From contig CAIOAT010000003.1 of assembly GCA_903856085.1 (NCBI GenBank), positions 173 to 64,172 on the forward strand: a DNA stretch of 64,000 nt, written 5' to 3'. The stretch comes from Candidatus Omnitrophota bacterium (lineage in GTDB: Bacteria > Omnitrophota > Omnitrophia > Omnitrophales > Aquincolibacteriaceae). Each line of letters opens with the position of its first letter. Within the stretch, counting starts at the first letter, position 1. Position numbers and translations under genes: made by a program. Positions 45,749 through 57,784 of this stretch are shown here, piece after piece. The notes beneath the pieces were generated by a model. The model worked only from the letters and a program-made list of their open reading frames with translations. It was not told the DNA's origin and made no database searches.

Positions 45749-46105
45749 TTGATCGTCGATGACGAAAAAATGATCTGTGAGGAATTTCGCGAAACCCTCG
45801 AACAAGAAGGCCATCAGGTCGATTGCGCGCTAAACGGCAAAGAGGGCCTTCGGAAGATACAGACCAATCATTATAATCTCGTCTTTTTGGATTCCGCGAT
45901 GCCCTTTTTGGACGGGAAAAAGGTTCTGGAGCATATCCGGCATTTCAGTCGGGTGCCAGTGGCCCTGATCACCGGTTTTTTGACGGAATCCAAAGAAAAA
46001 GAGATTCTGCATCTTGGCGCGATGGTGTGCCTTCGCAAGCCCTTGGACCTTGACCGAGTCAAATCACTCATTCATACTGTGTCCCGCTCCACGCACCCTT
46101 CATAA
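45749..46105 (+). CDS. Single-domain response regulator (CheY-like receiver)
   Basis: LIVDDE…FLDSAMP…ALITG…LRKP. All canonical REC residues are present. Apparent TTG start. Confidence 0.75.
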   Translation: MIVDDEKMICEEFRETLEQEGHQVDCALNGKEGLRKIQTNHYNLVFLDSAMPFLDGKKVLEHIRHFSRVPVALITGFLTESKEKEILHLGAMVCLRKPLDLDRVKSLIHTVSRSTHPS

Positions 46106-46125
46106 ACGATAACCGATTATTGCCT

Positions 46126-47406
46126 ATGTCCGACATCCGAGTTCGTTTCGCGCCATCCCCGACAGGATACCTCCACATTGGAGGTGTCCGTACTGCACTT
46201 TTTAATTACCTTTATGCGCGTCAGCAGGGCGGAAAATTCCTGCTGCGCATTGAAGACACCGATCGTCAGCGCTCGACACCCGGATTTGAACAGGAAATCC
46301 TGGAATCGCTTCGCTGGCTCGGGCTTGAGTGGGATGAAGAACTGGTCCATCAAAGTAAGCGGCTTGACCGGTACCGTGAAATCGCTCAAGAGCTCGTCGC
46401 CAAAGGTCTTGCCTATGAATTTGAGGGAGCCATTAAGTTCAAGATCCCGCAGACCGTAGTCAAAGTCTATGACATCGTTCGCGGGGAAGTGACCTACGAC
46501 TCCAAAGAGTTCGATGACCTCGTGATCATGAAGTCTGACGGATATCCTGTCTTTCATCTGGCGGTGATCGTGGATGACCATGACATGGGGATCACGCACG
46601 TGGTGCGCGGGGAGGACCATCTGACCAATACGCCCCGGCATATCCTTCTTCAGCAGGCGCTCGGATGGAAATCGCCCAAGTACGCACATCTCCCGCTCAT
46701 TTTTGGTTCCGATGGTACTCCGCTTTCCAAGCGTCATGGCGCGGTTGCGGTGACAGAATATCGTAACAAGGGTTTTCTTCCGCAGGGGCTCATCAACTAT
46801 CTGGCGCTTCTTGGCTGGAATCCCGGGACGCCGCAGGAGATCTTTTCGCTTCCGGAACTTGTGAAGCAATTTTCTCTGAAGCGCGTGATCAAATCGAACG
46901 CGCAGTTCAATCCCGAAAAACTTCTCTGGGTGAATGGCCAGCATATTCGCGCGATCCCGGGAGAGGATTATGAAAAACAGATGACGGAATTTTGGAAGGA
47001 CAAGTTGGAGCCGATGCCGGAAGAAAAATGGCGGAAGCTGATCGCGCTTTACCGGCCACGTATCCAGACCTATGGTGAGTTGAAGGAGCAGGCGGTTTAT
47101 TGCTTTGCCAGCCCCGATTATAAAGACGCCGCCTTGATGGCCGAGATCAAAGGGAATGCCGTGACGGTGAAGTTGCTGGGTGAATTGCGCGATGTTCTCA
47201 GCGACCTTGGAGATTTTGAAGATGTGCAGATCCTGGATCAAAAGACAAAACAAGTGGCTGAGGCCGCGGGCCTGAAGCCCAAGGATATCATCCATCCCCT
47301 TCGCTTTGTCTTGACGGGCGGCACTGCGAGCCCCGGTATTTTTGAGCTCATGAGCCTTCTTGGAAAAGAGACCTGCTTAGAACGTCTCGTAAAATTCCTC
47401 ATTTAA
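46126..47406 (+). CDS. gltX: Glutamate--tRNA ligase
   Basis: RFAPSPTGYLHIGGVRTALFN… (HIGH) and a KMSKS-like LSKR region. ATG at residue 3 of the track ORF. Confidence 0.9.
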   Translation: MSDIRVRFAPSPTGYLHIGGVRTALFNYLYARQQGGKFLLRIEDTDRQRSTPGFEQEILESLRWLGLEWDEELVHQSKRLDRYREIAQELVAKGLAYEFEGAIKFKIPQTVVKVYDIVRGEVTYDSKEFDDLVIMKSDGYPVFHLAVIVDDHDMGITHVVRGEDHLTNTPRHILLQQALGWKSPKYAHLPLIFGSDGTPLSKRHGAVAVTEYRNKGFLPQGLINYLALLGWNPGTPQEIFSLPELVKQFSLKRVIKSNAQFNPEKLLWVNGQHIRAIPGEDYEKQMTEFWKDKLEPMPEEKWRKLIALYRPRIQTYGELKEQAVYCFASPDYKDAALMAEIKGNAVTVKLLGELRDVLSDLGDFEDVQILDQKTKQVAEAAGLKPKDIIHPLRFVLTGGTASPGIFELMSLLGKETCLERLVKFLI

Positions 47407-47473
47407 CCTGGTTTCAGTGTGCGTAGACCACACTGGGAGTGTGAAATAGGTCGTAATTTGATATAATCCATCC

Positions 47474-49159
47474 ATGGAAATGCCCACGACACCTTCTAAT
47501 TTCATACGCGATATTATTAATGCCGACATCGCGAGCGGCAAGAACAAGGGTCGCGTGCACACACGCTTTCCGCCCGAACCCAACGGTTACCTCCATATCG
47601 GTCACGCCAAGGCTATCTGCATCAGTTTCGGGATCGCCCGCGACTACCAAGGGCTCTGCAATCTCCGTTTTGACGATACCAATCCCGAAAAAGAGGAAGT
47701 CGAATACGTGGATTCCATCCGCGAGGATGTTCGCTGGCTCGGTTTTGATTGGGGTGAACGCGAGTATTATGCTTCGGATTATTTTGGTCAACTCTATGAA
47801 CACGCGCTCACGCTTATCAAAAATGGAAAAGCCTATGTCTGTGACCTAAGCCCGGACGAGCAGCGCCAGTATCGCGGGACTTTCAACGAGCCAGGCAGGA
47901 ACAGCCCTTTTCGTGATCGATCTCCGGAAGAAAACCTGAATCTTTTTGAAAGGATGAAAGCCGGGGAATTCCCAGATGGCGCGCGCGTTTTAAGAGCGAA
48001 GATCGATATGGCGTCTCCCAACATTACCATGCGCGATCCCACGATCTACCGGATCAAAAAGGCGTCGCATCATCGCACCGGCGACCAATGGTGCATCTAT
48101 CCGATGTATGACTTCACGCATTGTATCTCGGACTCCATCGAAGGGATCACGCATTCGATCTGCACGCTCGAGTTTGAGAATAACCGTCCGCTTTATGACT
48201 GGGTTCTCGACCAGCTTGGCATTCACCATCCTCAACAGATAGAGTTCGCCCGTCTCAACATCACTTACACACTCCTGAGCAAGCGAATTCTGTTGAAGCT
48301 TGTTCAACAGAAGATCGTGTCCGGCTGGAATGATCCGCGTATGCCCACGATTTCGGGATTCCGTCGGCGTGGCTATACGCCATCCGCTATCCGCGCGTTT
48401 TGTGACAAGATCGGCGTTGCGAAGTTCAACAGCACGATCGATATGGTATTGCTCGAGAATTCCATCAGGGAAGAACTCAATAAAACAGCGCCTCGCGTGA
48501 TGGCAGTCCTGGATCCTCTTAAGGTTGTTATCACGAATTATCCCGAGGGCAAGACCGAAGAAATGGAGGCCGTGAATAATCCCGAGGATCCGGCGGCCGG
48601 GACGCGCATACTGCCGTTCTCAAAAGAACTTTATATCGAGCGGGAAGATTTCCGTGAGGATGCGCCCAAGAAATTCTTCCGGCTTGTGCCGGGCGGGGAA
48701 GTACGACTGCGTTATGGGTATTTCATCAAATGCGAAAAGGTCGTCAAGGACGCAGCCGGCCGGATCACAGAACTTCACTGTACGTACGATCCCGAAACCC
48801 GCGGAGGGAATAATCCTCCGGACGGCCGGAAGGTGAAGGGTACGATCCATTGGGTTTCAGCTCACCATGCACTGAAGGCCGAAGTCCGGCTCTATGATCA
48901 TTTGTTTGCCGCAAAAGATCCAGGTGATGTTCCGGAAGGCCAGGATATTTTTGTGAATCTGAATCCTAAATCTCTGGAGACGGTTTCCGAGGCGCTTCTT
49001 GAGCCTAGCTTGAAGGATGCGAAACCCGGCGAGCGGTTCCAGTTCGAGCGGCTTGGCTATTTCTTCGCAGATCCCATCGATTCCAAGTCCGGTCACCCCG
49101 TTTTCAATCGCACCGTGACTTTACGCGATACGTGGGAGAAGATCGAGAAAAAGGGGTAA
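47474..49159 (+). CDS. glnS: Glutamine--tRNA ligase
   Basis: …[23 protein letters not shown]… (HIGH), plus a C-terminal anticodon-binding β-barrel region typical of GlnRS. Confidence 0.9.
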
Positions 49160-49225
49160 TTACGGCGCTTGCGCCTAGGGCTCAAGTACCGCTTTGTGGA
49201 AGCTTTGGGAATGCTATCGACGAAG

Positions 49226-49296
49226 CTGGGGGACTAGGATTTGAACCTAGACTAGGTGATCCAGAGTCACCGGTGCTACCGTTACACCATCCCCCA
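49226..49296 (-). tRNA. tRNA-Gln (anticodon CTG)
   Basis: Reverse complement: UGGGGGA acceptor stem, D-arm GUGU/GCAC, anticodon stem-loop GGUGA-CUCUGGA-UCACC (CUG), T-arm CUAGG-UUCAAAU-CCUAG, discriminator G. Convergent, 67 nt after glnS. Confidence 0.8.
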
Positions 49297-49458
49297 ACGA
49301 AGGATATGAGATCAAACGGCGGGAAAAATCACGGGGATTATAGCGGGTCTTCAGCCTACCGACAAGAATTCTTCTCGAAGAAACGAATTTGAAATGGCGT
49401 AGCTTTCTATTTCCTCGCAAGTAGTCTAAAGCAGGCAACAGACGTCAGGATGAATTGC

Positions 49459-49698
49459 ATGAAGATTGGTAAAGAAGAACTGCTCGAAAAGTTGAAGAAG
49501 GCGTATGAAATGGAGGAGGTCATGGCGAATCTTTTGACCGCCTTGGCTATGCCGCATGTTTTTACCAGTAAAATCCACGAACAGGACAGGCAAAAGGTCC
49601 ACAAAATGCTCGCGATCATTCACGCGGATACTCTCAAACATAAAAAAATCGTGTCCGGAATGATGAAAAATCTTTCAGGGGGATCCTTTGGAGGTTAG
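49459..49698 (+). CDS. Small helical protein, 'A-type' domain (79 aa); paralogous to the N-terminal domain of the PilZ protein at 57305
   Basis: MKIGKEELLEKLKKAYEMEEVMANLL…IIHADTLKHKK… Two predicted helices. Aligns with MFTKEDYDKYFEQIARVERKMIYGV…DDEVRHYGYVLKML at 57305. AGGA lies 8 nt before the ATG at 49459. Confidence 0.5.
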   Translation: MKIGKEELLEKLKKAYEMEEVMANLLTALAMPHVFTSKIHEQDRQKVHKMLAIIHADTLKHKKIVSGMMKNLSGGSFGG

Positions 49699-51199
49699 TT
49701 TGCTGCTCGAGCAGCTGCGCCAATTAAAAGTTGCGGACCAGAACGCGCTGGATATTTACACCGGCCTGCAGTCTAAGGTTGAGGATAAAAAGATTCTCCT
49801 GTCATTGCAGCAACTTGTCCGCGATGAGTTGAAACATGTGGCGATGGAAAAAGAAATCCTGGCTATTCTCAAACAAGAGCAGCGGGTCTTTTTCTGGGGA
49901 GGAAAGAAAGAGGCGGAGGAATTCAAAGGGCTCTTTTCCAGGGCCAGCATCTATTTTACAGCGGGTAGTAAAAAAGAGCTTTTTCCCGGGACGCGGGACG
50001 GGAGGCCTTTTGATCTTGTGGTCTTGGACCTGGATAGTGAAGGGCACGTGAGCAATCCCAAGGCTGTCGCAGGTCTTGTTGGAAAGATCAGGAAAGCTCA
50101 CAAAAAGGTTGTGATTCTTTCATGTCGCAGGGACTTTAAATTGATCCGTGCGGCTTTCGAGGCCGGAACAAGCGACTACATTCTCAAACCCTTTAATCAG
50201 CGCGAGCTCAGCGCGAGGATCCTCGCCATTCTCGAGGGTAAAAAAAGAATCTGCTGTCTCGGAGGCGGAACCGGCCTTTTCACTCTGTTGAGCGCTCTTA
50301 AGACGCTTCCTGATATTCTCTTGATCTCACTTGTGAATATGAGCGATGACGGAGGATCCTCAGGACGGCTTCGGTCGTCGTTCGGGATTCTTCCCCCTGG
50401 CGATATCCGGCGTAGTCTTGTTGCGCTTTCGAACGCTCCTGAGGTCATGAATGAGTTGATTCGCTATCGATTCGATCGTGGGGGGGAGCTCCGTGACCAT
50501 TCACTCGGGAATCTTCTCCTGACGGGTCTTGCCGGGATGAAGGGGTCTATGGCCGAAGCGGTTCGAGCGATGGGGGATATCCTGAACATCCAGGGGATCG
50601 TGCTCCCGATCACTCAAACCATGACAGAGTTTGTCGCCCGTTTTGAAAATGGAAAAGTAATCCGCGGAGAAAGTCGGATCAGTCTTTGTGCGGGAAGAGA
50701 CCCGGCTCTGAAGATCCGCAAAGTATGGCACGAACCTCACGCTGAATGCGATGCAAGCTCCTACGCATCGATCCTTCATGCAGATGTTGTTATCATCGGT
50801 CCAGGGGACCTTTTTACGAGCGTGATCACGAACCTGGTGATCAGGAAGGTCAGCGAGGCGATTTCTCTTTCGCGGGCAAAAAAGATCTATATCTGTAATC
50901 TCATGACGCGGCCGGGCGAGACCTCAGGTCTTGATGCACGGGCGCATGTCAAAAGGGTCGTCGATGTGCTGGGAAGAGACCGCCTGAATTATGTCCTTGT
51001 TTCAAATACCCGGTTCTCCAAAGCCGCGATCGCGCGTTATGCAAAGCTAGACCAGCATCCGGTTTTGATAAATGAAAAAGAGGGGCTAGCGGGAATCACA
51101 AAGGCTAAGGAAATTCTTGCCGATATTGCCGACCAAAAGGAATTGGTCCGCCACGATCTTCAGAAGCTTCGTAATCAGCTTCTCCTGCTTCTTTCTTGA
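49688..51199 (+). CDS. Three-domain protein: N-terminal 'B-type' helical ExxH domain + atypical receiver (REC) + YvcK/GlmR/CofD-family (UPF0052) domain
   Basis: TTG start after GGGGGA. The N-terminus (M)EVSLLLEQLRQLKVADQNALDIYTGLQSK…VRDELKHVAMEKEIL is homologous to the small protein at 57079. REC-like FDLVVLDLD…ILSC…ILKPF lacks the N-terminal acidic pair. The YvcK domain has the hallmark CLGGGTGLFTLL…MSDDGGSSGRLR…PPGDIRRSLVALS. Confidence 0.7.
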   Translation: MEVSLLLEQLRQLKVADQNALDIYTGLQSKVEDKKILLSLQQLVRDELKHVAMEKEILAILKQEQRVFFWGGKKEAEEFKGLFSRASIYFTAGSKKELFPGTRDGRPFDLVVLDLDSEGHVSNPKAVAGLVGKIRKAHKKVVILSCRRDFKLIRAAFEAGTSDYILKPFNQRELSARILAILEGKKRICCLGGGTGLFTLLSALKTLPDILLISLVNMSDDGGSSGRLRSSFGILPPGDIRRSLVALSNAPEVMNELIRYRFDRGGELRDHSLGNLLLTGLAGMKGSMAEAVRAMGDILNIQGIVLPITQTMTEFVARFENGKVIRGESRISLCAGRDPALKIRKVWHEPHAECDASSYASILHADVVIIGPGDLFTSVITNLVIRKVSEAISLSRAKKIYICNLMTRPGETSGLDARAHVKRVVDVLGRDRLNYVLVSNTRFSKAAIARYAKLDQHPVLINEKEGLAGITKAKEILADIADQKELVRHDLQKLRNQLLLLLS

Positions 51200-51232
51200 C
51201 GCCCCGGCATGCAGCGCGCGCGATGAGCGTTA

Positions 51233-51904
51233 TTAGAGACACATCCGGTCATTGATATTGCGCAGGACGCGCAATCCCCTAAAACCTTCCGCATAGTGGA
51301 CCCGGCCCTGGACCCCTCTGAATGTTGCGTAGGCTCTGGCAATCTCCGTAATTTTCAGATTCTCGATGCTCGTTTTCTCAATTTGTGAGGCGTGTAATTC
51401 GAGCAGTTTGATCTTTTCAGGGAGGATGTCGGTGATATCAACGAAGATGTCAGGGATGAAATCCAGGCAACTAGGGGATTCATAAAAAAGGACCTCCTTG
51501 ACGTTGCGTGTTGCGGCGATCGTTGCGCGAGAGGCTGCGCGGTGGTCCTGATGGCTGTCATCAAAATGGTTGATCAAGACAATGTCTGGAGATACCGCCG
51601 TGACCGCGCCCTCGATCGTTCTTATGAGGTTCCTATCGTCATGCAATTCAGTATCGTGGTAGCCGCCCCAAATAATCTTTTTGACGCCAAGAGCTGCTGC
51701 GGCTCCTTCTTGTTCCAGTTTACGCGTTGCCGGATCTCCACCGACACATCCGTCGGTCAGGATTAACTGGTAGATCTGATTTCCCGCTTGTCCGTATCTT
51801 ACGAGAGTTCCGCCGCAGCCAAATTCAATATCATCCGGATGTGGACCGATCGCGAGAATATTCATGCCGGTTTTTTTTGGGGATAGCTCATGGTGTGATT
51901 CCAC
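51233..51904 (-). CDS. PIG-L/LmbE-family N-acetylglucosaminyl deacetylase
   Basis: AIGPHPDDIEFGCGGTL…HQDH… is a zinc-deacetylase signature. Cytoplasmic, with no signal peptide. GTG start in the track; an alternative ATG (MNIL…) is at 51865. Divergent from the EPS operon. Confidence 0.75.
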   Translation of the reverse strand: MESHHELSPKKTGMNILAIGPHPDDIEFGCGGTLVRYGQAGNQIYQLILTDGCVGGDPATRKLEQEGAAAALGVKKIIWGGYHDTELHDDRNLIRTIEGAVTAVSPDIVLINHFDDSHQDHRAASRATIAATRNVKEVLFYESPSCLDFIPDIFVDITDILPEKIKLLELHASQIEKTSIENLKITEIARAYATFRGVQGRVHYAEGFRGLRVLRNINDRMCL

Positions 51905-52077
51905 AGCGGGGTCCTCCGTTTGCGAGTGACAATAAAAGACAGCGCAGGATTATAGCATTAGCGTGTATAAGTTTTTAATCAAAAAAACAGCCATCGTTTA
52001 AGGTGCGCTTGTGTATAATGCAACATTCACATTTGACGGGTGTTTTGCCGTTCAACTATCGGGTAACGAAAACCCCT

Positions 52078-52683
52078 ATGAAGAAGGTCTTTTTTGGAGC
52101 GATGCTGGTTTTGATAGCGGCCGCCACGACGGGTGTTTATTACCTCACCCAAAAAGCCGACATCTACTACTACAAAGGGCATGATCTTTTCGTCAAGGCA
52201 AAGTATAAAGCCGCTGTTCAGCCCTTCCTTCAGTCCCTCTCAGAGGATCCGAAACGTTCCAAAACGCTAACGGAGCTCGGGTATTCTTACCTCTGGGCCG
52301 GAGATTATCCGGAGGCCATCCAAGTGTTCCAGAAACTGGTCGCACTTGAACCCGGAGCTTTTCGGGTGAAAAAATCATTGGCCAGCGCTTACTCCTGGAA
52401 TAAAGAATATGCGAAGGCCGAGGCGATTTTCCGGGAGGTTATTCGCGGAGACAAGAACGACCGGGATGCCCAAAAGGGATTGGCCGAGATTTATATTTGG
52501 GACAATCAATTTGACAAGGCAAAAGAGATCTTAACGGCCTTGCTCAAAAGCAATGCCGGGGACGCCCAGGCGAAGTTCCTTTACGGAAAAGCGCTGCTTT
52601 ATTCCGGGCACACGAAAGAAGCCCTCAAGATTTTCGAGGAGCTCTCAGGTGGTTCAAAACCCATCGCAAGGAAAACTCCATGA
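52078..52683 (+). CDS. TPR-repeat protein with N-terminal membrane anchor or signal peptide (first gene of EPS operon)
   Basis: MKKVFFGAMLVLIAAATTGVYYL, then about 4 TPR units. Its stop overlaps the next start (ATGA). Confidence 0.6.
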   Translation: MKKVFFGAMLVLIAAATTGVYYLTQKADIYYYKGHDLFVKAKYKAAVQPFLQSLSEDPKRSKTLTELGYSYLWAGDYPEAIQVFQKLVALEPGAFRVKKSLASAYSWNKEYAKAEAIFREVIRGDKNDRDAQKGLAEIYIWDNQFDKAKEILTALLKSNAGDAQAKFLYGKALLYSGHTKEALKIFEELSGGSKPIARKTP

Positions 52684-54602
52684 AAAAAATTCTCCTCGGT
52701 ATCGTCGGTCTCATGATCGTGAGCGGCCCCTTATTTGCGGAAGGCGGGGTGAGCCAGAAAGAGTTGAAGGAATTGATGGGTGACAGCTACATGATCGAGC
52801 AGGATTATGATAGCTCCGTCAAACAGTACAGGGAAGTTCTCGCCAAGGATCCGCAGAATGTAAAGGCCAGGGTGTCGCTCGCGGACGTGTTGAGTTGGCA
52901 GCAAAAATACGAGGAGGCTGTCACGGAATATCTGCAAGCTCTGAAATACCAGGAGACTTCGGAAGAGGCCCTTGAAGTCAAAAAGAAACTGGCGGGTGTT
53001 TATGTCTGGAAGAAAGACTATCTTAAAGCCGAAGCCCTGTATCAGGAACTGATAGCGCAGAATCCGGGCAATTCAAAAGACGCGGTTGCGCTTGCGGAAG
53101 TCTTTTTGCGTCTTGGAAAACCGGAAGCATCCAAGCAATTGTTGCAAGGCGTTTTGGAGAAAGATCCTCAAAATAGGGATGCCAAAATTCTTCTGGGGGA
53201 TGTCTACGCAGAGAACGAAGATTTTAAGAAAGCCCTGGAGCTTTTCCGGGAAGTTCTTGATGCAAAATACGATCGCAAGGTCAAAGCGAAAGTTGGGGAT
53301 GTGCTGAGTTGGACCCGGCACTACCGCGAAGCGCTGAAGATCTACGATGAACTTTTGGTCGAGAAGGATGACAAGGCGTTAAGGATTCAAAAGGCCCGGA
53401 TCCTCGGTTGGGAAAAGGAGTATGGCCGTTCGAGGAAAGAATACCAGGAGATTCTGAGGAGGGGGCCTGATGAGCTTGTGAAAGAGGAAATGGACGCCAA
53501 GGAATTCTACTGGAGAAACAGGGTCAAACGCGCGATCACGGCGTATAAGAAACTGATCAGCAAGGCTCCGGAAAATGCGGAAGCGATGTTTGACCTTAGC
53601 CAGATCTATTCTTACCAGGCCATGTGGCATGAGGCGATCGATCAATACAAGAAACTTCTCGGTGTTTTTGAGGAGCATTCCAGGGCCAAAGAAGGATTGC
53701 AGAAGGCGGAGTTGTTTTTGAGTCACCCCATGCTTACCTCCGGGTATGAATTCTTTAAGGCCCACAGCGGCGCTCGTGGGGTCGATATCCATAAAAATGT
53801 TTTTACAAGCTTGCTCGACATCCCGCTTAATGCGCAGACAGTTTTGGGATTGGGATACAACCTCACCCGGCGGTCCTTTTTGGATTTTCATGATCTGACC
53901 GAGAACCATGCTCGCGTGGCGCTCAGTTATCAGAAAAGTCCCGACTGGTCGACGGGCGCTTTTTTAAATCTGATCACTTACAATCGGAGTGTGGCCCCCG
54001 TCTACGAGTTCGGTGGACAGTTTGCGGTCAGGACCTTTGATGTCGGACAGCTGACGCTTTCGCAGGAACAGCAGCGGCTTGAGAACAACAGCACCGTGAT
54101 CCGTCGCAGGCTCTTTCAGGATAATTTTAAGGTTCGGCAGGACATTGACCTCACAAAACGGTGGAAGGCGGGTACCGATTACACTTTCTCTTATTTCTCT
54201 GACCACAATCGATGCAGCGAAGTGGCGGCGGATACTCTGTATTACTTCTCCCTCGAACCGAGAGCGTTTTATGTGAAATACCGTTATGCCTTCCGCAATT
54301 TCCGGAAGATCGAAACGGACTACTTTTCGCCGCAGGAATATTCCCTCCACACGCTCTCACTGCGGTGGAAACATTTCCTCAATAAAGAGGAGATCTTTTT
54401 TGGCGCGAACGATCTTTATTATGAAGCCGGCTATGACATTTCGTTCGATTCCCAGGGCATTACCAGCCATCAGATCATGGGCGGGCTTACTTGGGATATC
54501 ACCAAGCGTCTTCAGATCAAAGGCGAAGGGCAGTATACGATCGCATCGACAAAGATCTACGAGGACGCAGGGGCCAAGGCCTCTGTAAAATACTTCTTCT
54601 AA
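52680..54602 (+). CDS. Outer-membrane polysaccharide export protein: N-terminal TPR array + C-terminal β-barrel (BcsC/PgaA/PelB/NfrA-like architecture)
   Basis: Signal peptide MKKILLGIVGLMIVSGPLFA, then about 330 aa of TPRs and a ~300 aa C-terminal region with alternating β-strand character. It ends …ASVKYFF, the aromatic C-terminal OMP signature. Confidence 0.6.
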   Translation: MKKILLGIVGLMIVSGPLFAEGGVSQKELKELMGDSYMIEQDYDSSVKQYREVLAKDPQNVKARVSLADVLSWQQKYEEAVTEYLQALKYQETSEEALEVKKKLAGVYVWKKDYLKAEALYQELIAQNPGNSKDAVALAEVFLRLGKPEASKQLLQGVLEKDPQNRDAKILLGDVYAENEDFKKALELFREVLDAKYDRKVKAKVGDVLSWTRHYREALKIYDELLVEKDDKALRIQKARILGWEKEYGRSRKEYQEILRRGPDELVKEEMDAKEFYWRNRVKRAITAYKKLISKAPENAEAMFDLSQIYSYQAMWHEAIDQYKKLLGVFEEHSRAKEGLQKAELFLSHPMLTSGYEFFKAHSGARGVDIHKNVFTSLLDIPLNAQTVLGLGYNLTRRSFLDFHDLTENHARVALSYQKSPDWSTGAFLNLITYNRSVAPVYEFGGQFAVRTFDVGQLTLSQEQQRLENNSTVIRRRLFQDNFKVRQDIDLTKRWKAGTDYTFSYFSDHNRCSEVAADTLYYFSLEPRAFYVKYRYAFRNFRKIETDYFSPQEYSLHTLSLRWKHFLNKEEIFFGANDLYYEAGYDISFDSQGITSHQIMGGLTWDITKRLQIKGEGQYTIASTKIYEDAGAKASVKYFF

Positions 54603-56147
54603 ATGAAAAACAAACAAGAACCGCAATCCAGTATTGTGCTTGAGACGCTCGGGGTTCTCGCGATCCTGGCGGCGATGACGTATTTAATTGTTCGCGGAGT
54701 TCTGCTTGAGCGCGCTAAATACTCCGTAGTGGACGGTATTTTTGCGATCCTTATCCTTTTGGCAGAAGCTTTTATCCTCTTCCATGGCATCGGTTATGCG
54801 GTCGCGATCCTCTGGAGTAAGAAGAAAGCTCGTAGCCTATCGGTTATCTCCCAGGGCATCCCTCCGCTCGCGGAACAGAATCAGCCCTCTGTTGCGATCC
54901 TCATTCCCGCCCGCCACGAACCCAAAGAGGTTCTTGAAAAGACCTTTATCACGGTCGACAACATCGAGTATAAGAACAAGCGGGTTTATTTCCTGGATGA
55001 CAGTATCAAAGAGGAATATCACAAAGAAGCCGAAGAGCTTGCGCGGGAGTATCACCTGACGCTTTTTCGTCGCACCAAGCCATGGCATGGCGCGAAGGCC
55101 GGGATCATTAATGATTTCCTGGAACAAATGACGGAAAAGTACGTGGTGATCTTTGATGCGGACAGTAACCCGATGCCTGATTTCCTCGGGCCACTTGTTC
55201 CGATCATGGAAGCGAACGTGAAACTGGGGTTTGTCCAAACGCCGCAATTTTATACGAATATTGAAGACAGCCGGATCGCGCGGGCGGCGGTACTTCAGCA
55301 GGCAGTTTTTTACGAGTACATCTGCGACGGGAAGGGGATCGTGGATTCGATGTTTTGTTGCGGGACCAACGTGATCTTGCGGGCCAGCGCCCTCAAGGCT
55401 ATCGGAGGGATGGATGAAAGGACGGTGACGGAGGATTTCGCGACCTCTCTCAAGCTTCACACACACGGTTTTTCTTCGCTTTATTACAATCACGTTTGTG
55501 TTTTTGGAATGGGTCCTGAGGATCTGATCGGTTATTTTACGCAGCAGTTCCGTTGGACCGCGGGGACCCTCCAGGTCTTGAGAAGTCTTGTCGCCCAGTT
55601 CTTCACAAAACCTTTTTCGCTCAGCCCAGGGCAATGGTTCCAGTATTTTCTCTCCGGCACTTACTATCTGGTGGGATTTGCGTACTTCATATTGATCCTG
55701 GGGCCTCTTCTTTACATTTTCTTCAGGGTGCCGTCTTTTTTTATCCGACCCGAAGTCTATTTTCTTTTCTTCCTCCCTTACATGTTGTTGTCGACGAGCG
55801 TTTTTTATTTTTCATTACAAAAAAGAAATTATAAACCTCGCGATCTTATGCTCGGGCAGCTTCTGGGGGCATCGAGTTGTTTCGTTTACATGAAAGCCGC
55901 GTTGGCGGCCCTTTTGGGCTTCAAGATTTCATTCGGGGTGACTTCGAAGGCCAAGGGAGGATCGGTATCTCTTCGCGTGATTTGGCCGCAGCTCGCAGTG
56001 ATGGCGGCAACTTTTATCGCGCTGGTGTGGGCCGTGAATCGCTTTGTTTATGAACATGAACCGGCGTTGCTCATCAATGGTTTTTGGACCTTTTACCAGT
56101 TTCTTATCTTTTCCAGCATTTTTTATTTTAACCAAGGATCAAAGTGA
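54603..56147 (+). CDS. Processive family-2 glycosyltransferase, polysaccharide synthase (cellulose-synthase/PgaC-like, no PilZ domain)
   Basis: N-terminal TM helices. Motifs DDS, DADSNP (DxD), TEDF (TED) and QQFRWTAGTL (QxxRW). C-terminal TM helices. Start is adjacent to the upstream stop. Confidence 0.8.
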   Translation: MKNKQEPQSSIVLETLGVLAILAAMTYLIVRGVLLERAKYSVVDGIFAILILLAEAFILFHGIGYAVAILWSKKKARSLSVISQGIPPLAEQNQPSVAILIPARHEPKEVLEKTFITVDNIEYKNKRVYFLDDSIKEEYHKEAEELAREYHLTLFRRTKPWHGAKAGIINDFLEQMTEKYVVIFDADSNPMPDFLGPLVPIMEANVKLGFVQTPQFYTNIEDSRIARAAVLQQAVFYEYICDGKGIVDSMFCCGTNVILRASALKAIGGMDERTVTEDFATSLKLHTHGFSSLYYNHVCVFGMGPEDLIGYFTQQFRWTAGTLQVLRSLVAQFFTKPFSLSPGQWFQYFLSGTYYLVGFAYFILILGPLLYIFFRVPSFFIRPEVYFLFFLPYMLLSTSVFYFSLQKRNYKPRDLMLGQLLGASSCFVYMKAALAALLGFKISFGVTSKAKGGSVSLRVIWPQLAVMAATFIALVWAVNRFVYEHEPALLINGFWTFYQFLIFSSIFYFNQGSK

Positions 56148-57079
56148 AAAGAGCAGCCCCTATTATTTTAGCGTTGGGAGCGTGCGTGCTGTTCGGCTCT
56201 TGTGACGGGCAAAAGGAAAAAGGGTGCTTGACCGGGGCCTTTCTGGCGGATATGCCCAAGGCTGCTTTGATCGAAAAGTTCGCGGTCGATTATGGCAAAC
56301 GGCCGGCTTTCGTACTGATTTTTTTAGATTGGGGAAAGTTTCCAGACGAAACCGTGGTCCGCGATGTCTATGCCAGTGGAAGCATTTTGATGGTGACCTG
56401 GGAACCCTGGCGTGCAGTCCAGAAGGTCGCAATTGATTATGGCGCTCTGCTCAGCGGCAGGGATGACGCGTATATCCGTGACTTTGCGCTGAGGCTGAAA
56501 GCGGTCGGGAAGCCTGTTTTTTTAAGGTTCGCGCATGAGATGAACGGGGACTGGTATCCCTGGTCCGGCCGGAAGCTCGGAAAAGAAACTTATATTGGGA
56601 TGTTCCGGCATATCCGTAAAGTGTTTGACGAAGCCGGTGCCCGCAATGTTCGCTGGGTATTTTCGATCAATGCGGAGAATGTTCCGCCGGAAAATACCTA
56701 TGCCGATTGTTATCCGGGCGACCGTTATGTGGATTATATCGGGCTGGATGGATATAATTGGGGTGCTACCCAGGCATGGAGCCGATGGAGGAGTTTTGAG
56801 GATGTCTTTTCCGGCGTTTATGAAGAGACCGTCCGGCGTTACAAAAAGCCGGTAATTCTTTCGGAATTCAGTTCGTCCTCGGTCGGGGGAGATAAGGTTC
56901 GCTGGATCGATGAGGCGCTTCAAGAAATAAGAAAAATGCCCGCGGTGAAAGGTTTTATTCTTTTTAACATCGACAAAGAGACGGATTGGCGGTTTCCGCC
57001 GGATGCGGCAAGCGGCCAAGAATTAAAGACAGGCCTCAGGAATGCTTATTTTAAGGAAGCCCGAGAAGAGGAGCTTTAA
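56144..57079 (+). CDS. Secreted clan GH-A glycoside hydrolase, family 26-like (β-mannanase-like)
   Basis: Signal peptide or lipobox-like MKRAAPIILALGACVLFGSC. FAHEMNGDWYPW (HEMN acid/base motif of GH26) and …PVILSEFSS (nucleophile Glu region). GTGA overlap with the GT2 stop. Confidence 0.65.
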   Translation: MKRAAPIILALGACVLFGSCDGQKEKGCLTGAFLADMPKAALIEKFAVDYGKRPAFVLIFLDWGKFPDETVVRDVYASGSILMVTWEPWRAVQKVAIDYGALLSGRDDAYIRDFALRLKAVGKPVFLRFAHEMNGDWYPWSGRKLGKETYIGMFRHIRKVFDEAGARNVRWVFSINAENVPPENTYADCYPGDRYVDYIGLDGYNWGATQAWSRWRSFEDVFSGVYEETVRRYKKPVILSEFSSSSVGGDKVRWIDEALQEIRKMPAVKGFILFNIDKETDWRFPPDAASGQELKTGLRNAYFKEAREEEL

Positions 57080-57315
57080 TGACCAAAGACGAACTTATCG
57101 CCCGATTAAACCAACTTCATAACGAAGAAGAACTGGCGATCCCGATCTACACCAAGCATCTGGAGAGCACTTTTTTTCTTTCCCGCATCAAGCCCGAGGC
57201 CAAGAAAGAGATCCAAGAGATGCTTTTGACTTTGGCTATGGAATCGGAAGTGCACGCCCGGATGTTTGATGCCACCATTAAGAAAGTGCAGGAGTCAAAG
57301 CGCGATGTTTACTAA
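57079..57315 (+). CDS. Small helical protein, 'B-type' ExxH domain (78 aa); paralogous to the N-terminus of the REC-YvcK protein
   Basis: MTKDELIARLNQLHNEEELAIPIYTKHLES…EIQEMLLTLAMESEVHARMF aligns with LLLEQLRQLKVADQNALDIYTGLQSK…LVRDELKHVAMEKEIL at 49688. ATG overlaps the upstream stop (TAATG). Confidence 0.5.
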   Translation: MTKDELIARLNQLHNEEELAIPIYTKHLESTFFLSRIKPEAKKEIQEMLLTLAMESEVHARMFDATIKKVQESKRDVY

Positions 57316-57784
57316 AGAAGACTACGATAAATATTTTGAGCAGATCGCGCGTGTGGAGAGAAAAATGATCTACGGGGTTTATGACCTTGGCCGCGAAATC
57401 GATGATCCTTTGATTACGAATGTTTTAAAAAAGATCGGGGATGATGAGGTGCGGCACTATGGTTATGTCCTGAAGATGCTTAAGGCGACCGAAGCGGCAG
57501 GGCAGCTCGAGAATCGCCGTGAGGTCCGGGAGCATTATCTTGGCACAGTTCGTTTGTGGCGTTCTCAGGATCCGTCGCGAGCCGAGATCAGTGCTCGTTG
57601 TGTAAATCTATCAAAGATCGGGATTTGCCTGGAATGCGCAGAGAATCTTTCGTCCTCTGGAGTTTGGGATATCGAGATCCGCTTATTTGATAAAGAAAAA
57701 GTGATCGTTTGTCAGGGGCGGGTCGTTTGGAGCAAAGAGGTGGAGCCGGATTTCCATATCAGCGGAATTGAATTCAATGCGTGA
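57305..57784 (+). CDS. PilZ-domain c-di-GMP receptor with N-terminal 'A-type' helical domain
   Basis: C-terminal PilZ motifs: RREVR (RxxxR), then 28 aa later NLSKIG (D/NxSxxG), then …GRVVWSKE…GIEF. The N-terminal 70 aa are paralogous to 49459..49698. The ATG at 57305 overlaps the previous stop. Confidence 0.7.
   Translation: MFTKEDYDKYFEQIARVERKMIYGVYDLGREIDDPLITNVLKKIGDDEVRHYGYVLKMLKATEAAGQLENRREVREHYLGTVRLWRSQDPSRAEISARCVNLSKIGICLECAENLSSSGVWDIEIRLFDKEKVIVCQGRVVWSKEVEPDFHISGIEFNA

Follow-up and report, generated by a model that had tools for sequence, protein, structure and literature searches.

In Gram-positive bacteria, YvcK/GlmR proteins are controlled by UDP-N-acetylglucosamine (UDP-GlcNAc), by the RapZ-like protein YvcJ and by Ser/Thr phosphorylation; in the Firmicutes, control is exerted by RapZ/YvcJ and by PrkC, and the literature describes yvcK as a gene that "seems always associated" with yvcJ (PMC7525490). 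Experiments on Bacillus subtilis GlmR assign D38 and D39 to catalysis, and Y265 and R301 to UDP-GlcNAc binding (PMC7525490, PMC13046274), and a 2026 paper on GlmR notes that little is known of YvcK/GlmR function outside Gram-positive bacteria (PMC13046274). Here, we describe a member of this family from the candidate phylum Omnitrophota, encoded in a 64,000-nucleotide stretch of DNA (hereafter, the window) from a Candidatus Omnitrophota bacterium (GenBank assembly GCA_903856085.1, contig CAIOAT010000003.1). Positions 49688-51199 of the window (forward strand, as for all features below unless stated) hold a complete open reading frame (ORF) with a TTG start, which is a real gene for a 503-aa protein in which YvcK/GlmR is fused to a degenerate receiver (REC) domain and, at its N-terminus, to a two-helix hairpin (hairpin B). 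We posit that this protein combines YvcK/GlmR activity with a REC-like module that works independently of phosphotransfer, and that its hairpin would couple it, within a helical bundle, to a neighbouring exopolysaccharide (EPS) synthase, an explanation to which, taken as a whole, we give a probability of about 0.5.

YvcK/GlmR and its receiver-like extension

The TTG start of the 503-aa gene follows the sequence AGGGGGA, located 4 nt upstream, and its position is common to the close homologues, several of which print M where non-ATG starts are given as V or L. Fourteen homologue clusters of 502-510 aa (74-98% identity), drawn from varied samples and sources, have the same three-module architecture. 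Structurally, an AlphaFold2 model based on an alignment of 114 homologues (mean predicted local distance difference test score, pLDDT, 86.7; predicted template-modelling score, pTM, 0.82) was confident across all domain junctions, and divided the protein into two helices (aa 2-28 and 34-61), a (beta-alpha)5 domain (aa 66-182) and a YvcK module (aa 186-502). A helical N-terminal domain had already been called in an earlier reading made from the letters alone (hereafter, the sequence-only reading), and in the model it takes the form of a confident two-helix hairpin. A scan of positions 49100-52100 returned four promoter-like and five terminator-like sequences, which is near the expectation from shuffled sequence (means of 2.5 and 3.6, respectively).

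The YvcK/GlmR domain of the CofD superfamily (aa 186-503; 50243-51196) was recognized both by Pfam (CofD, PF01933, aa 188-464, E 2.5e-80) and by the NCBIfam YvcK model TIGR01826, which scored 285.7 bits over aa 189-500 against a cutoff of 196; the motifs GGGTG, DDGGSSGRLR and PPGDIRR were all found. A phmmer search matched PDB entry 2o2z at E 2e-62, and Foldseek comparison of the modelled structure against the PDB (template-modelling, TM, values normalised to the target) paired the module with Bacillus halodurans BH3568 (2o2z/2hzb) at E 2e-31, with a TM of 0.93, a root-mean-square deviation (rmsd) of 2.0 Å and 38-39% identity. The sequence-only reading had called a YvcK/GlmR domain here, and the fold and the curated model bear it out. 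Through the phmmer alignment to BH3568, whose chain is numbered in step with B. subtilis GlmR at both T14 (in GGGTG) and D38 D39, residues T195 (in GGGTG), D220-D221 (50345-50350), Y451 (51038-51040) and R488 (51149-51151) map to B. subtilis T14, D38, D39, Y265 and R301, and D220, D221, Y451 and R488 are invariant or at least 90% conserved among the 114 homologues. The equivalent of the PrkC phosphosite T304 is L491, and this phosphosite is not conserved. Judged by these alignments, the YvcK module is intact at every residue with known functional importance, and the 503-aa protein is probably the Omnitrophota form of YvcK/GlmR, that is, a UDP-GlcNAc-binding accessory uridyltransferase and regulator of hexosamine flux. 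That the domain might instead be a CofD/FbiA-type 2-phospho-L-lactate transferase of F420 biosynthesis, or a CofD-like protein of the GAK system, is suggested by the CofD name of its Pfam family and by further Foldseek matches to CofD and FbiA; yet these lie far behind (TM 0.55-0.68, rmsd 6-8.5 Å, 14-16% identity), the GAK model TIGR04357 reaches 89.9 bits against a cutoff of 340 where the YvcK model exceeds its own, and we consider this alternative very improbable.

Between hairpin and YvcK lies the REC-like domain (aa 66-185; 49883-50242), delimited from a partial Pfam match, AlphaFold and Foldseek. The receiver family PF00072 matched aa 107-178 with 26.1 bits, below its gathering score of 30.2 (E 1e-5), and covered profile positions 42-110 only; among species representatives of the family, it was found at E <= 0.01 in 20 of 28 members. 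The model, as assigned by DSSP, nevertheless contains a complete (beta-alpha)5 domain at aa 66-182, which Foldseek superposes on the receivers of PmrA, KdpE and ArlR (TM 0.75-0.82, rmsd 2.2-2.9 Å, ~122 residues), with PhoP also matched; the segment is a folded domain and not the unstructured linker that it might have been. Its sequence matches are OmpR/PhoB-type receivers. Searched alone, the segment retrieves 657 ordinary receiver proteins at E <= 1e-3 and not the ~440-aa relatives described below, a result that shows, at the level of sequence, homology to receivers together with fast divergence, and for which the segment was dropped as a means of sizing the family.

At the residues of phospho-chemistry, the domain departs from canonical receivers. 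The beta1-alpha1 loop reads W70-G71-G72, with G71-G72 (49898-49903) at the positions of the acidic pair, the Mg2+ ligands that end beta1 in canonical receivers, and no register shift that supplies an acidic residue, and the sequence retains D114 at the phosphoacceptor position (50027-50029), S145 (50120-50122), K167-P168 (50186-50191) and R172 (50201-50203). These assignments agree with the sequence-only reading, which had noted the lost acidic pair alongside the retained Asp, Ser/Thr and Lys, and had suggested a possible pseudo-receiver. Counted over 27 Omnitrophota species representatives, the first acidic position is acidic in none and is mostly Gly, and the second is acidic in 6; the Asp is kept in 23 (S, T or E in the other 4), the Asp two residues on (D116) in 21, the Ser/Thr in 23, and the Lys in 11, Arg taking its place in 8 and T, N, S, A, M, D or G in another 8, whereas P168 is kept in 26 and R172 in all 27. 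Even a relative with 80% identity (L012) has Asn at the Lys position. We read the domain as a pseudo-receiver or an atypical receiver, because the first acidic position is never acidic across the phylum sample and the Lys is often lost. The part of its surface that is conserved, the beta5-alpha5 region (P168, R172, E173), continues directly into YvcK, and through this face the domain would act as a built-in regulatory or dimerisation module independent of canonical phosphotransfer.

The main rival reading, which we regard as unlikely, takes the domain for a working phospho-receiver, in which an orphan histidine kinase or acetyl phosphate would phosphorylate D114 and so switch the activity or oligomerisation of YvcK, the protein then being a true response regulator whose output domain is YvcK. 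Retention of D114, S145 and K167-P168 in the 503-aa protein, and of the Asp and Ser/Thr in most of the species sampled, is consistent with such a switch, the conserved D-x-D formed with D116 could give a substitute metal ligand, and it is genuine OmpR/PhoB-type receivers that the sequence matches; canonical single-domain receivers are also the commonest neighbour family of REC-YvcK genes (6 of 98 neighbouring genes), and one is encoded 3.6 kb upstream in the window (45749-46105). These points have to be set against an acidic pair that is missing from W70-G71-G72 in whichever register and nearly so from the phylum sample, a Lys that gives way to residues other than Arg in 8 of 27 species including the 80%-identical relative, an Asp that is itself exchanged in 4, and a Pfam score under the gathering threshold, and no histidine kinase was adjacent in any gene context examined.

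Evolutionarily, the fusion of REC to YvcK is not special to the window. Homologue searches returned the 14 near relatives of ~503 aa and about a hundred proteins of ~440 aa (45-62% identity) that cover REC and YvcK; where the latter carry an organism name, it is Candidatus Omnitrophota or Omnitrophica, save for one Candidatus Eisenbacteria, and many of the database entries are already annotated PF00072+PF01933. A scan of species-representative genomes, which is a sample of loci and not a census, so that counts refer to the matches listed, placed GGGTG at aa 99-195 in 29 of 29 Omnitrophota-type loci, each of which is accordingly extended by 90-190 aa at the N-terminus (a few of the 29 come from metagenome-assembled genomes labelled Kofleriaceae, Planctomycetia or "uncultured"). 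In ~50 listed loci of Patescibacteria, DPANN archaea, Nitrospira and other groups, by contrast, GGGTG stands at aa 7-53; the exceptions outside Omnitrophota were one Nanoarchaeia (DPANN) protein with an extension, and L073, in which the motif was not located. The Nanoarchaeia homologue (L083:3563-4945, predicted start) has an apparent ~145-aa hydrophobic N-terminal extension that resembles a membrane anchor and not a REC domain. From these sampled loci, the REC-YvcK fusion appears to be the normal form throughout Omnitrophota, and, with all 29 listed loci extended, REC-YvcK alone does not set the gene at 49688-51199 apart. The statement of the sequence-only reading that YvcK proteins are normally stand-alone holds for the ~50 loci outside Omnitrophota but fails within it. 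A literature search found no description of receiver-YvcK or receiver-CofD proteins, or of YvcK in Omnitrophota; the architecture is nonetheless already visible in public annotation, which leaves the hairpin cassette described next as the most original element.

Nor does the usual partner accompany the fusion: no RapZ-like Walker A ORF occurs in the window, and PF03668 (RapZ/YvcJ) was found neither in the gene contexts examined nor among the 25 commonest neighbour families of 26 species loci. The census of 98 neighbouring genes over those 26 loci gave REC (6), GT2 (glycosyltransferase family 2; 5) and TPR (tetratricopeptide repeat; 5) families with no dominant partner. We considered an acylphosphatase encoded directly 3' of REC-YvcK as a dephosphorylation partner; it was present only in two related genomes, at L004:8427-8663 and L006:8326-8628, and at 0 of the 29 listed Omnitrophota loci, and is probably not a functional partner.

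The hairpin cassette and the exopolysaccharide operon

Hairpin B (aa 1-62; 49688-49873) is a helix-loop-helix domain with a putative ferritin-like half-site formed by D17, Y24 and D46-E47-x-K49-H50. It is preceded by a 79-aa ORF, hairpin A (49459-49698, or 82 aa from an alternative ATG at 49450), which runs 11 nt into the beginning of the 503-aa gene. Homologues of hairpin A form 13 clusters, all of 79-81 aa, and both the ORF and its 11-nt overlap with the 503-aa gene are kept in relatives at 75-81% identity. Hairpin A is modelled by AlphaFold (pLDDT 85) as two helices (aa 5-35 and 41-73), and its invariant residues are E17, E19, E20, D57, T58 and H61.

A profile search with hairpin B revealed stand-alone homologues of 63-68 aa in other Omnitrophota, and all four independent contexts (L008/L009, L010/L011, L092 and L093) present, in this order, hairpin A (74-79 aa), hairpin B (63-67 aa) and a GT2 (418-448 aa). 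In these cassettes, A and B either share 11 nt or lie 1-2 nt apart, and the GT2 is usually followed by a TPR/PgaA-barrel protein and a dCMP deaminase. One stand-alone hairpin B is labelled "rubrerythrin", and one hairpin A "Mn-containing catalase", by JGI. Directly 5' of the cassette in L093, a eukaryote-type UDP-sugar pyrophosphorylase (PF01704, E 1e-37) is encoded at L093:3284-4666, an arrangement that parallels the YvcK fusion. Overlaps of 11 nt recur between different gene pairs: at 49688-49698 (A/B) and 57305-57315 (A'/B', see below) in the window, at L094:4969-4979 (GH20/REC-YvcK) and at L010:5001-5011.

Comparison of these loci shows, as far as their sequences tell, that the N-terminal hairpin of the 503-aa protein arose by fusion from a GT2-associated two-gene cassette, and that the hairpin fusion is limited to this small clade. 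The cassette in L092 has the upstream synteny of the window (NAD kinase, REC, gltX, glnS), which derives the window clade from an A-B-GT2 arrangement, through a fusion of hairpin B with REC-YvcK and the exchange of the EPS genes. The GT2 of the window was compared with the cassette GT2s as a possible orthologue and rejected: identity is only 18-22%, which points to replacement of the EPS operon rather than its simple expansion. In the window, the block at 45749-49296 comprises a single-domain REC (118 aa, PF00072 79 bits), gltX, glnS and an opposite-strand tRNA-Gln(CTG) gene (49225-49296); the GlnRS gene adjoins the tRNA-Gln gene, and the block is syntenic in relatives including L092.

The separate existence of A and B bears on whether the three-module ORF could be an artefact, either of assembly or of a frameshift error that joined genes, or whether the small ORF and the 503-aa ORF are truly one gene. 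The TTG start and the 11-nt overlap with the upstream ORF might raise that suspicion, but the same architecture recurs in the 14 clusters from different samples and sources, several starting with M, the 79-aa ORF and its overlap persist in relatives, the hairpins are separate genes in other genomes, and the AlphaFold model is confident at every junction, so that we give the artefact next to no weight. The single-gene (frameshift) variant is ruled out by the conserved two-gene order, the 11-nt overlap and the separate A and B genes elsewhere; a programmed frameshift fusing the two is likewise unlikely, because A and B are separated by 1-2 nt in other genomes.

Downstream of the 503-aa gene by 33 nt, and convergent with it, lies a gene for a PIG-L/LmbE-family deacetylase (51233-51904, reverse strand; PF02585, 88 bits), which is syntenic in close relatives and assignable at family level only (BshB1 model TIGR04001, 101 bits against a cutoff of 182). 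It is followed by a synthase-type EPS operon, with core genes at 52003-57079, encoding a TPR protein (52003-52683), a TPR protein with weak matches to the PgaA/BcsC export porins (52680-54602), a BcsA-like GT2 without PilZ (54603-56147) and a glycoside hydrolase family 26 (GH26)-like hydrolase (56144-57079). The GT2 is closest to the cellulose synthase BcsA and not to PgaC (TIGR03030, 215 bits against a cutoff of 699). Including a second hairpin pair, the operon runs to 57784: hairpin A', a 78-aa ORF and paralogue of hairpin A (57079-57315), overlaps by 11 nt the gene for hairpin B'::PilZ (57305-57784; PilZ, PF07238), a protein of 159 aa counted from ATG 57305, which is likely the true start in place of TTG 57266 given in the ORF list.

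The kinship of the two pairs emerged from profile searches. A' was the second-best window match of the hairpin A profile and its best non-self match (E 7.4e-5 over 833 segments), aligned with that profile over its full length at 18.7-21 bits, and in its first helix also matches hairpin B. The N-terminal ~60 aa of the PilZ protein ("...IGDDEVRHYG") were the best non-self window match of the hairpin B profile (E 0.005), and this N-terminus matches a designed 4Glu-2His bundle, 9u78 (E 7e-11). Searching all DNA examined with both profiles agreed with the search of the window, the best non-self matches being at the far end of the EPS operon. The A' ORF and its 11-nt overlap with B'::PilZ are kept in L002 and L003. 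The locus thus holds two translationally coupled pairs, [A + B::REC-YvcK] and [A' + B'::PilZ], which bracket the PIG-L and EPS genes.

Proposed hairpin pairing, a possible metal site and sugar supply

What the hairpins resemble was asked of PDB sequences with a hairpin B profile built from 24 sequences. The matches were the designed 4Glu-2His metal bundle 9u78 (E 1.5e-9), the single-chain "due ferri" protein DFsc (E 5e-6), bacterioferritin 9viw (E 9.5e-5) and DF1 (E 9.7e-5), followed more weakly (E 0.09-1.6) by an encapsulated-ferritin domain, a rubrerythrin-like protein, DesA2, R2lox and another bacterioferritin; all are ferritin-like di-metal proteins, an encapsulin-type particle protein or designed mimics, save one splicing factor (E 0.5). 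D17, Y24 and D46-E47-x-K49-H50 of hairpin B align with E10, Y17 and D35-E36-x-K38-H39 of DF1, its metal ligands and second-shell residues, and among the 24 sequences Y24, E47 and H50 are invariant and D17 and D46 at least 90% conserved. Hairpin B thereby has the pattern of a half-site, in which an acidic residue is followed after seven residues by a Tyr, and the second helix bears ExxH (D17, Y24, E47-x-x-H50). Candidates for a second half-site in hairpin A are E19/E20 and D57-T58-x-x-H61, where Thr replaces the Glu, and A' shares features of both families. Pfam gave hairpin B no significant family, DUF455 coming at E 0.079 alone and at 0.008 with two hairpins concatenated. As a reference, encapsulated ferritin is a two-helix protein whose di-iron site is completed only at the dimer interface and whose assembly depends on metal (PMC5012862).

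Functionally, we propose that hairpin B and the 79-aa hairpin A, which is co-translated, would combine into a four-helix bundle that may enclose a metal site; by their pairing, YvcK would be tethered or gated in the apparatus that regulates the neighbouring EPS synthase, which is linked to cyclic di-GMP (c-di-GMP). A parallel coupling of PilZ to the synthase machinery would run through the paralogous A'/B' pair at the other end of the operon, and the net effect would be a supply of UDP-sugar matched to polymer synthesis. Several points weigh against this reading. We infer the physical interaction of A with B from gene coupling only; profile-profile similarity between the two is not significant (probability <1%), which removes this comparison as a demonstration of direct A/B paralogy and leaves the motif register and the intermediate A' sequence. 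Hairpin A has no sequence match in the PDB, its Foldseek matches are generic helical hairpins (E > 1), and its residue at the expected position of the bridging ExxH Glu is Thr. In the REC-like domain, the phospho-site may have been rewired or a cation site may persist, because the Asp, the Ser/Thr and D116 are kept in more species than a dead site needs. The BcsA-like synthase would presumably use UDP-glucose, which weakens the specific rationale of UDP-GlcNAc, and the phylum sample contains no conserved neighbour of REC-YvcK.

How far the bundle would be a metal protein is a separate matter. The hairpins may be plain coiled-coil modules for docking or dimerisation, without metal, their di-iron likeness being the product of heptad convergence and a short DExxH-like motif; we hold this to be possible though not probable. 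Such a reading accounts for the missing PDB sequence match and generic structural matches of hairpin A, for the Thr in hairpin A and the Ser in A' at the expected Glu, and for the thin Pfam result, and the top PDB matches are short, repetitive designed peptides that inflate summed scores. It sits less well with the near-invariance of the metal-binding or supporting residues D17, Y24, D46, E47 and H50 across the hairpin B sequences, with the natural ferritin-like matches (bacterioferritin, and more weakly encapsulated ferritin, the rubrerythrin-like protein, DesA2 and R2lox) that accompany the designed ones, with the independent JGI labels for a member of each hairpin family, or with the cluster of invariant E17, E19 and E20, plus D57 and H61, in hairpin A. 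At the other extreme, A/B and A'/B' could be natural heterodimeric "due ferri"-type four-helix bundles that, depending on Fe/Mn or redox state, switch the domain fused to hairpin B (YvcK or PilZ) at a polysaccharide synthase. This we offer as a long shot; if true, EPS production in Omnitrophota would come under the joint control of metal or redox status, of c-di-GMP and of the supply of UDP-sugars.

Returning to the proposed coupling of YvcK to the EPS synthase, its genomic support differs between clades. The sequence-only reading had set the gene beside an exopolysaccharide locus and a GlcNAc deacetylase: the EPS operon (52003-57784) and the convergent gene at 51233-51904 are indeed there, but the deacetylase goes no further than a PIG-L family match. 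It had also proposed that UDP-sugar supply is coupled to polymer synthesis, and this survives for the window clade and its sister clade alone, on evidence other than that first given, namely the hairpin cassette 5' of a GT2 in the one and Wza/Wzc-type clusters in the other, whereas distant REC-YvcKs are found in housekeeping neighbourhoods. The sister clade (~60% identity, without the hairpin) has its REC-YvcKs among polysaccharide genes, at L094:3933-6393 and on the P0017 contig, in clusters made up of Bac_transf, GH20, Wza, Wzc-like, ABC-transporter and epimerase genes. The start of REC-YvcK in L094 is overlapped over 11 nt by the gene for a GH20 hexosaminidase; on the P0017 contig, an unannotated 65-aa ORF is a possible hairpin B, and lies ~0.6 kb downstream of the epimerase genes located after REC-YvcK. 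On these gene contexts, the EPS link appears real for this sub-lineage and not for the REC-YvcK fusion as such. A link specific to UDP-GlcNAc is at most conjectural: the synthase is BcsA-like and not PgaC-like, and the PIG-L assignment stays at family level.

More broadly, a whole uncultured phylum appears to replace the control arrangement of Gram-positive type with a permanently fused degenerate receiver, which gives the receiver fold a new output partner and presents a natural case in which to study the gating of YvcK activity. The hairpin fusion of the window clade, for its part, offers a Rosetta-stone link from a ferritin-like hairpin cassette to sugar-nucleotide metabolism, c-di-GMP signalling (through PilZ) and synthase-dependent EPS. 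The modules are small and soluble, so that these predictions are open to heterologous expression without culturing the organism.

Relation to described systems

Set beside known YvcK/GlmR proteins (B. subtilis GlmR, BH3568, Mycobacterium tuberculosis CuvA and Escherichia coli YbhK), the C-terminal 318 aa of the 503-aa protein share the fold (TM 0.93, 38-39% identity), GGGTG, the DD pair and the Tyr/Arg equivalents. The protein differs in its ~185 extra N-terminal residues, which make up the hairpin and the REC-like domain, and in the Leu at the equivalent of the PrkC site T304; its gene is not beside yvcJ/rapZ or whiA, and stands instead at an EPS locus of a diderm candidate phylum.

Receivers that depart from the canonical phosphotransfer scheme include FrzS, the KaiA N-terminal domain, HP1043 and ChxR. 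With these the Omnitrophota domain shares a receiver fold with incomplete phospho-chemistry residues, and probably a role as a phosphorylation-independent regulatory or dimerisation module; it is distinct in being fused to YvcK, and in mostly keeping the Asp and Ser/Thr while losing the canonical Mg2+ acidic pair.

The EPS operon is closest to the c-di-GMP-gated synthase systems of BcsA-PilZ type (Bcs, Pga), with which it has in common a BcsA-like GT2, a TPR protein with weak PgaA/BcsC matches, a glycoside hydrolase and a PilZ protein. PilZ is here a separate protein with a hairpin N-terminus, rather than the C-terminal part of the synthase. In Bcs systems the usual hydrolase, BcsZ, belongs to GH8, whereas that of the window is GH26-like, and all family scores fall under the curated cutoffs.

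Finally, encapsulated ferritin and the designed proteins DF1, DFsc and 4EH2 resemble the hairpins described here in being two-helix hairpins with half a di-metal site (acidic...Tyr...D-E-x-K-H) that is completed when hairpins pair. In Omnitrophota the putative pairing would be heterodimeric, with Thr in place of the Glu in the partner's ExxH, and no encapsulin context accompanies it; hairpin B is fused to REC-YvcK or to PilZ, is linked to glycosyltransferase operons, and its metal site is a predicted one.

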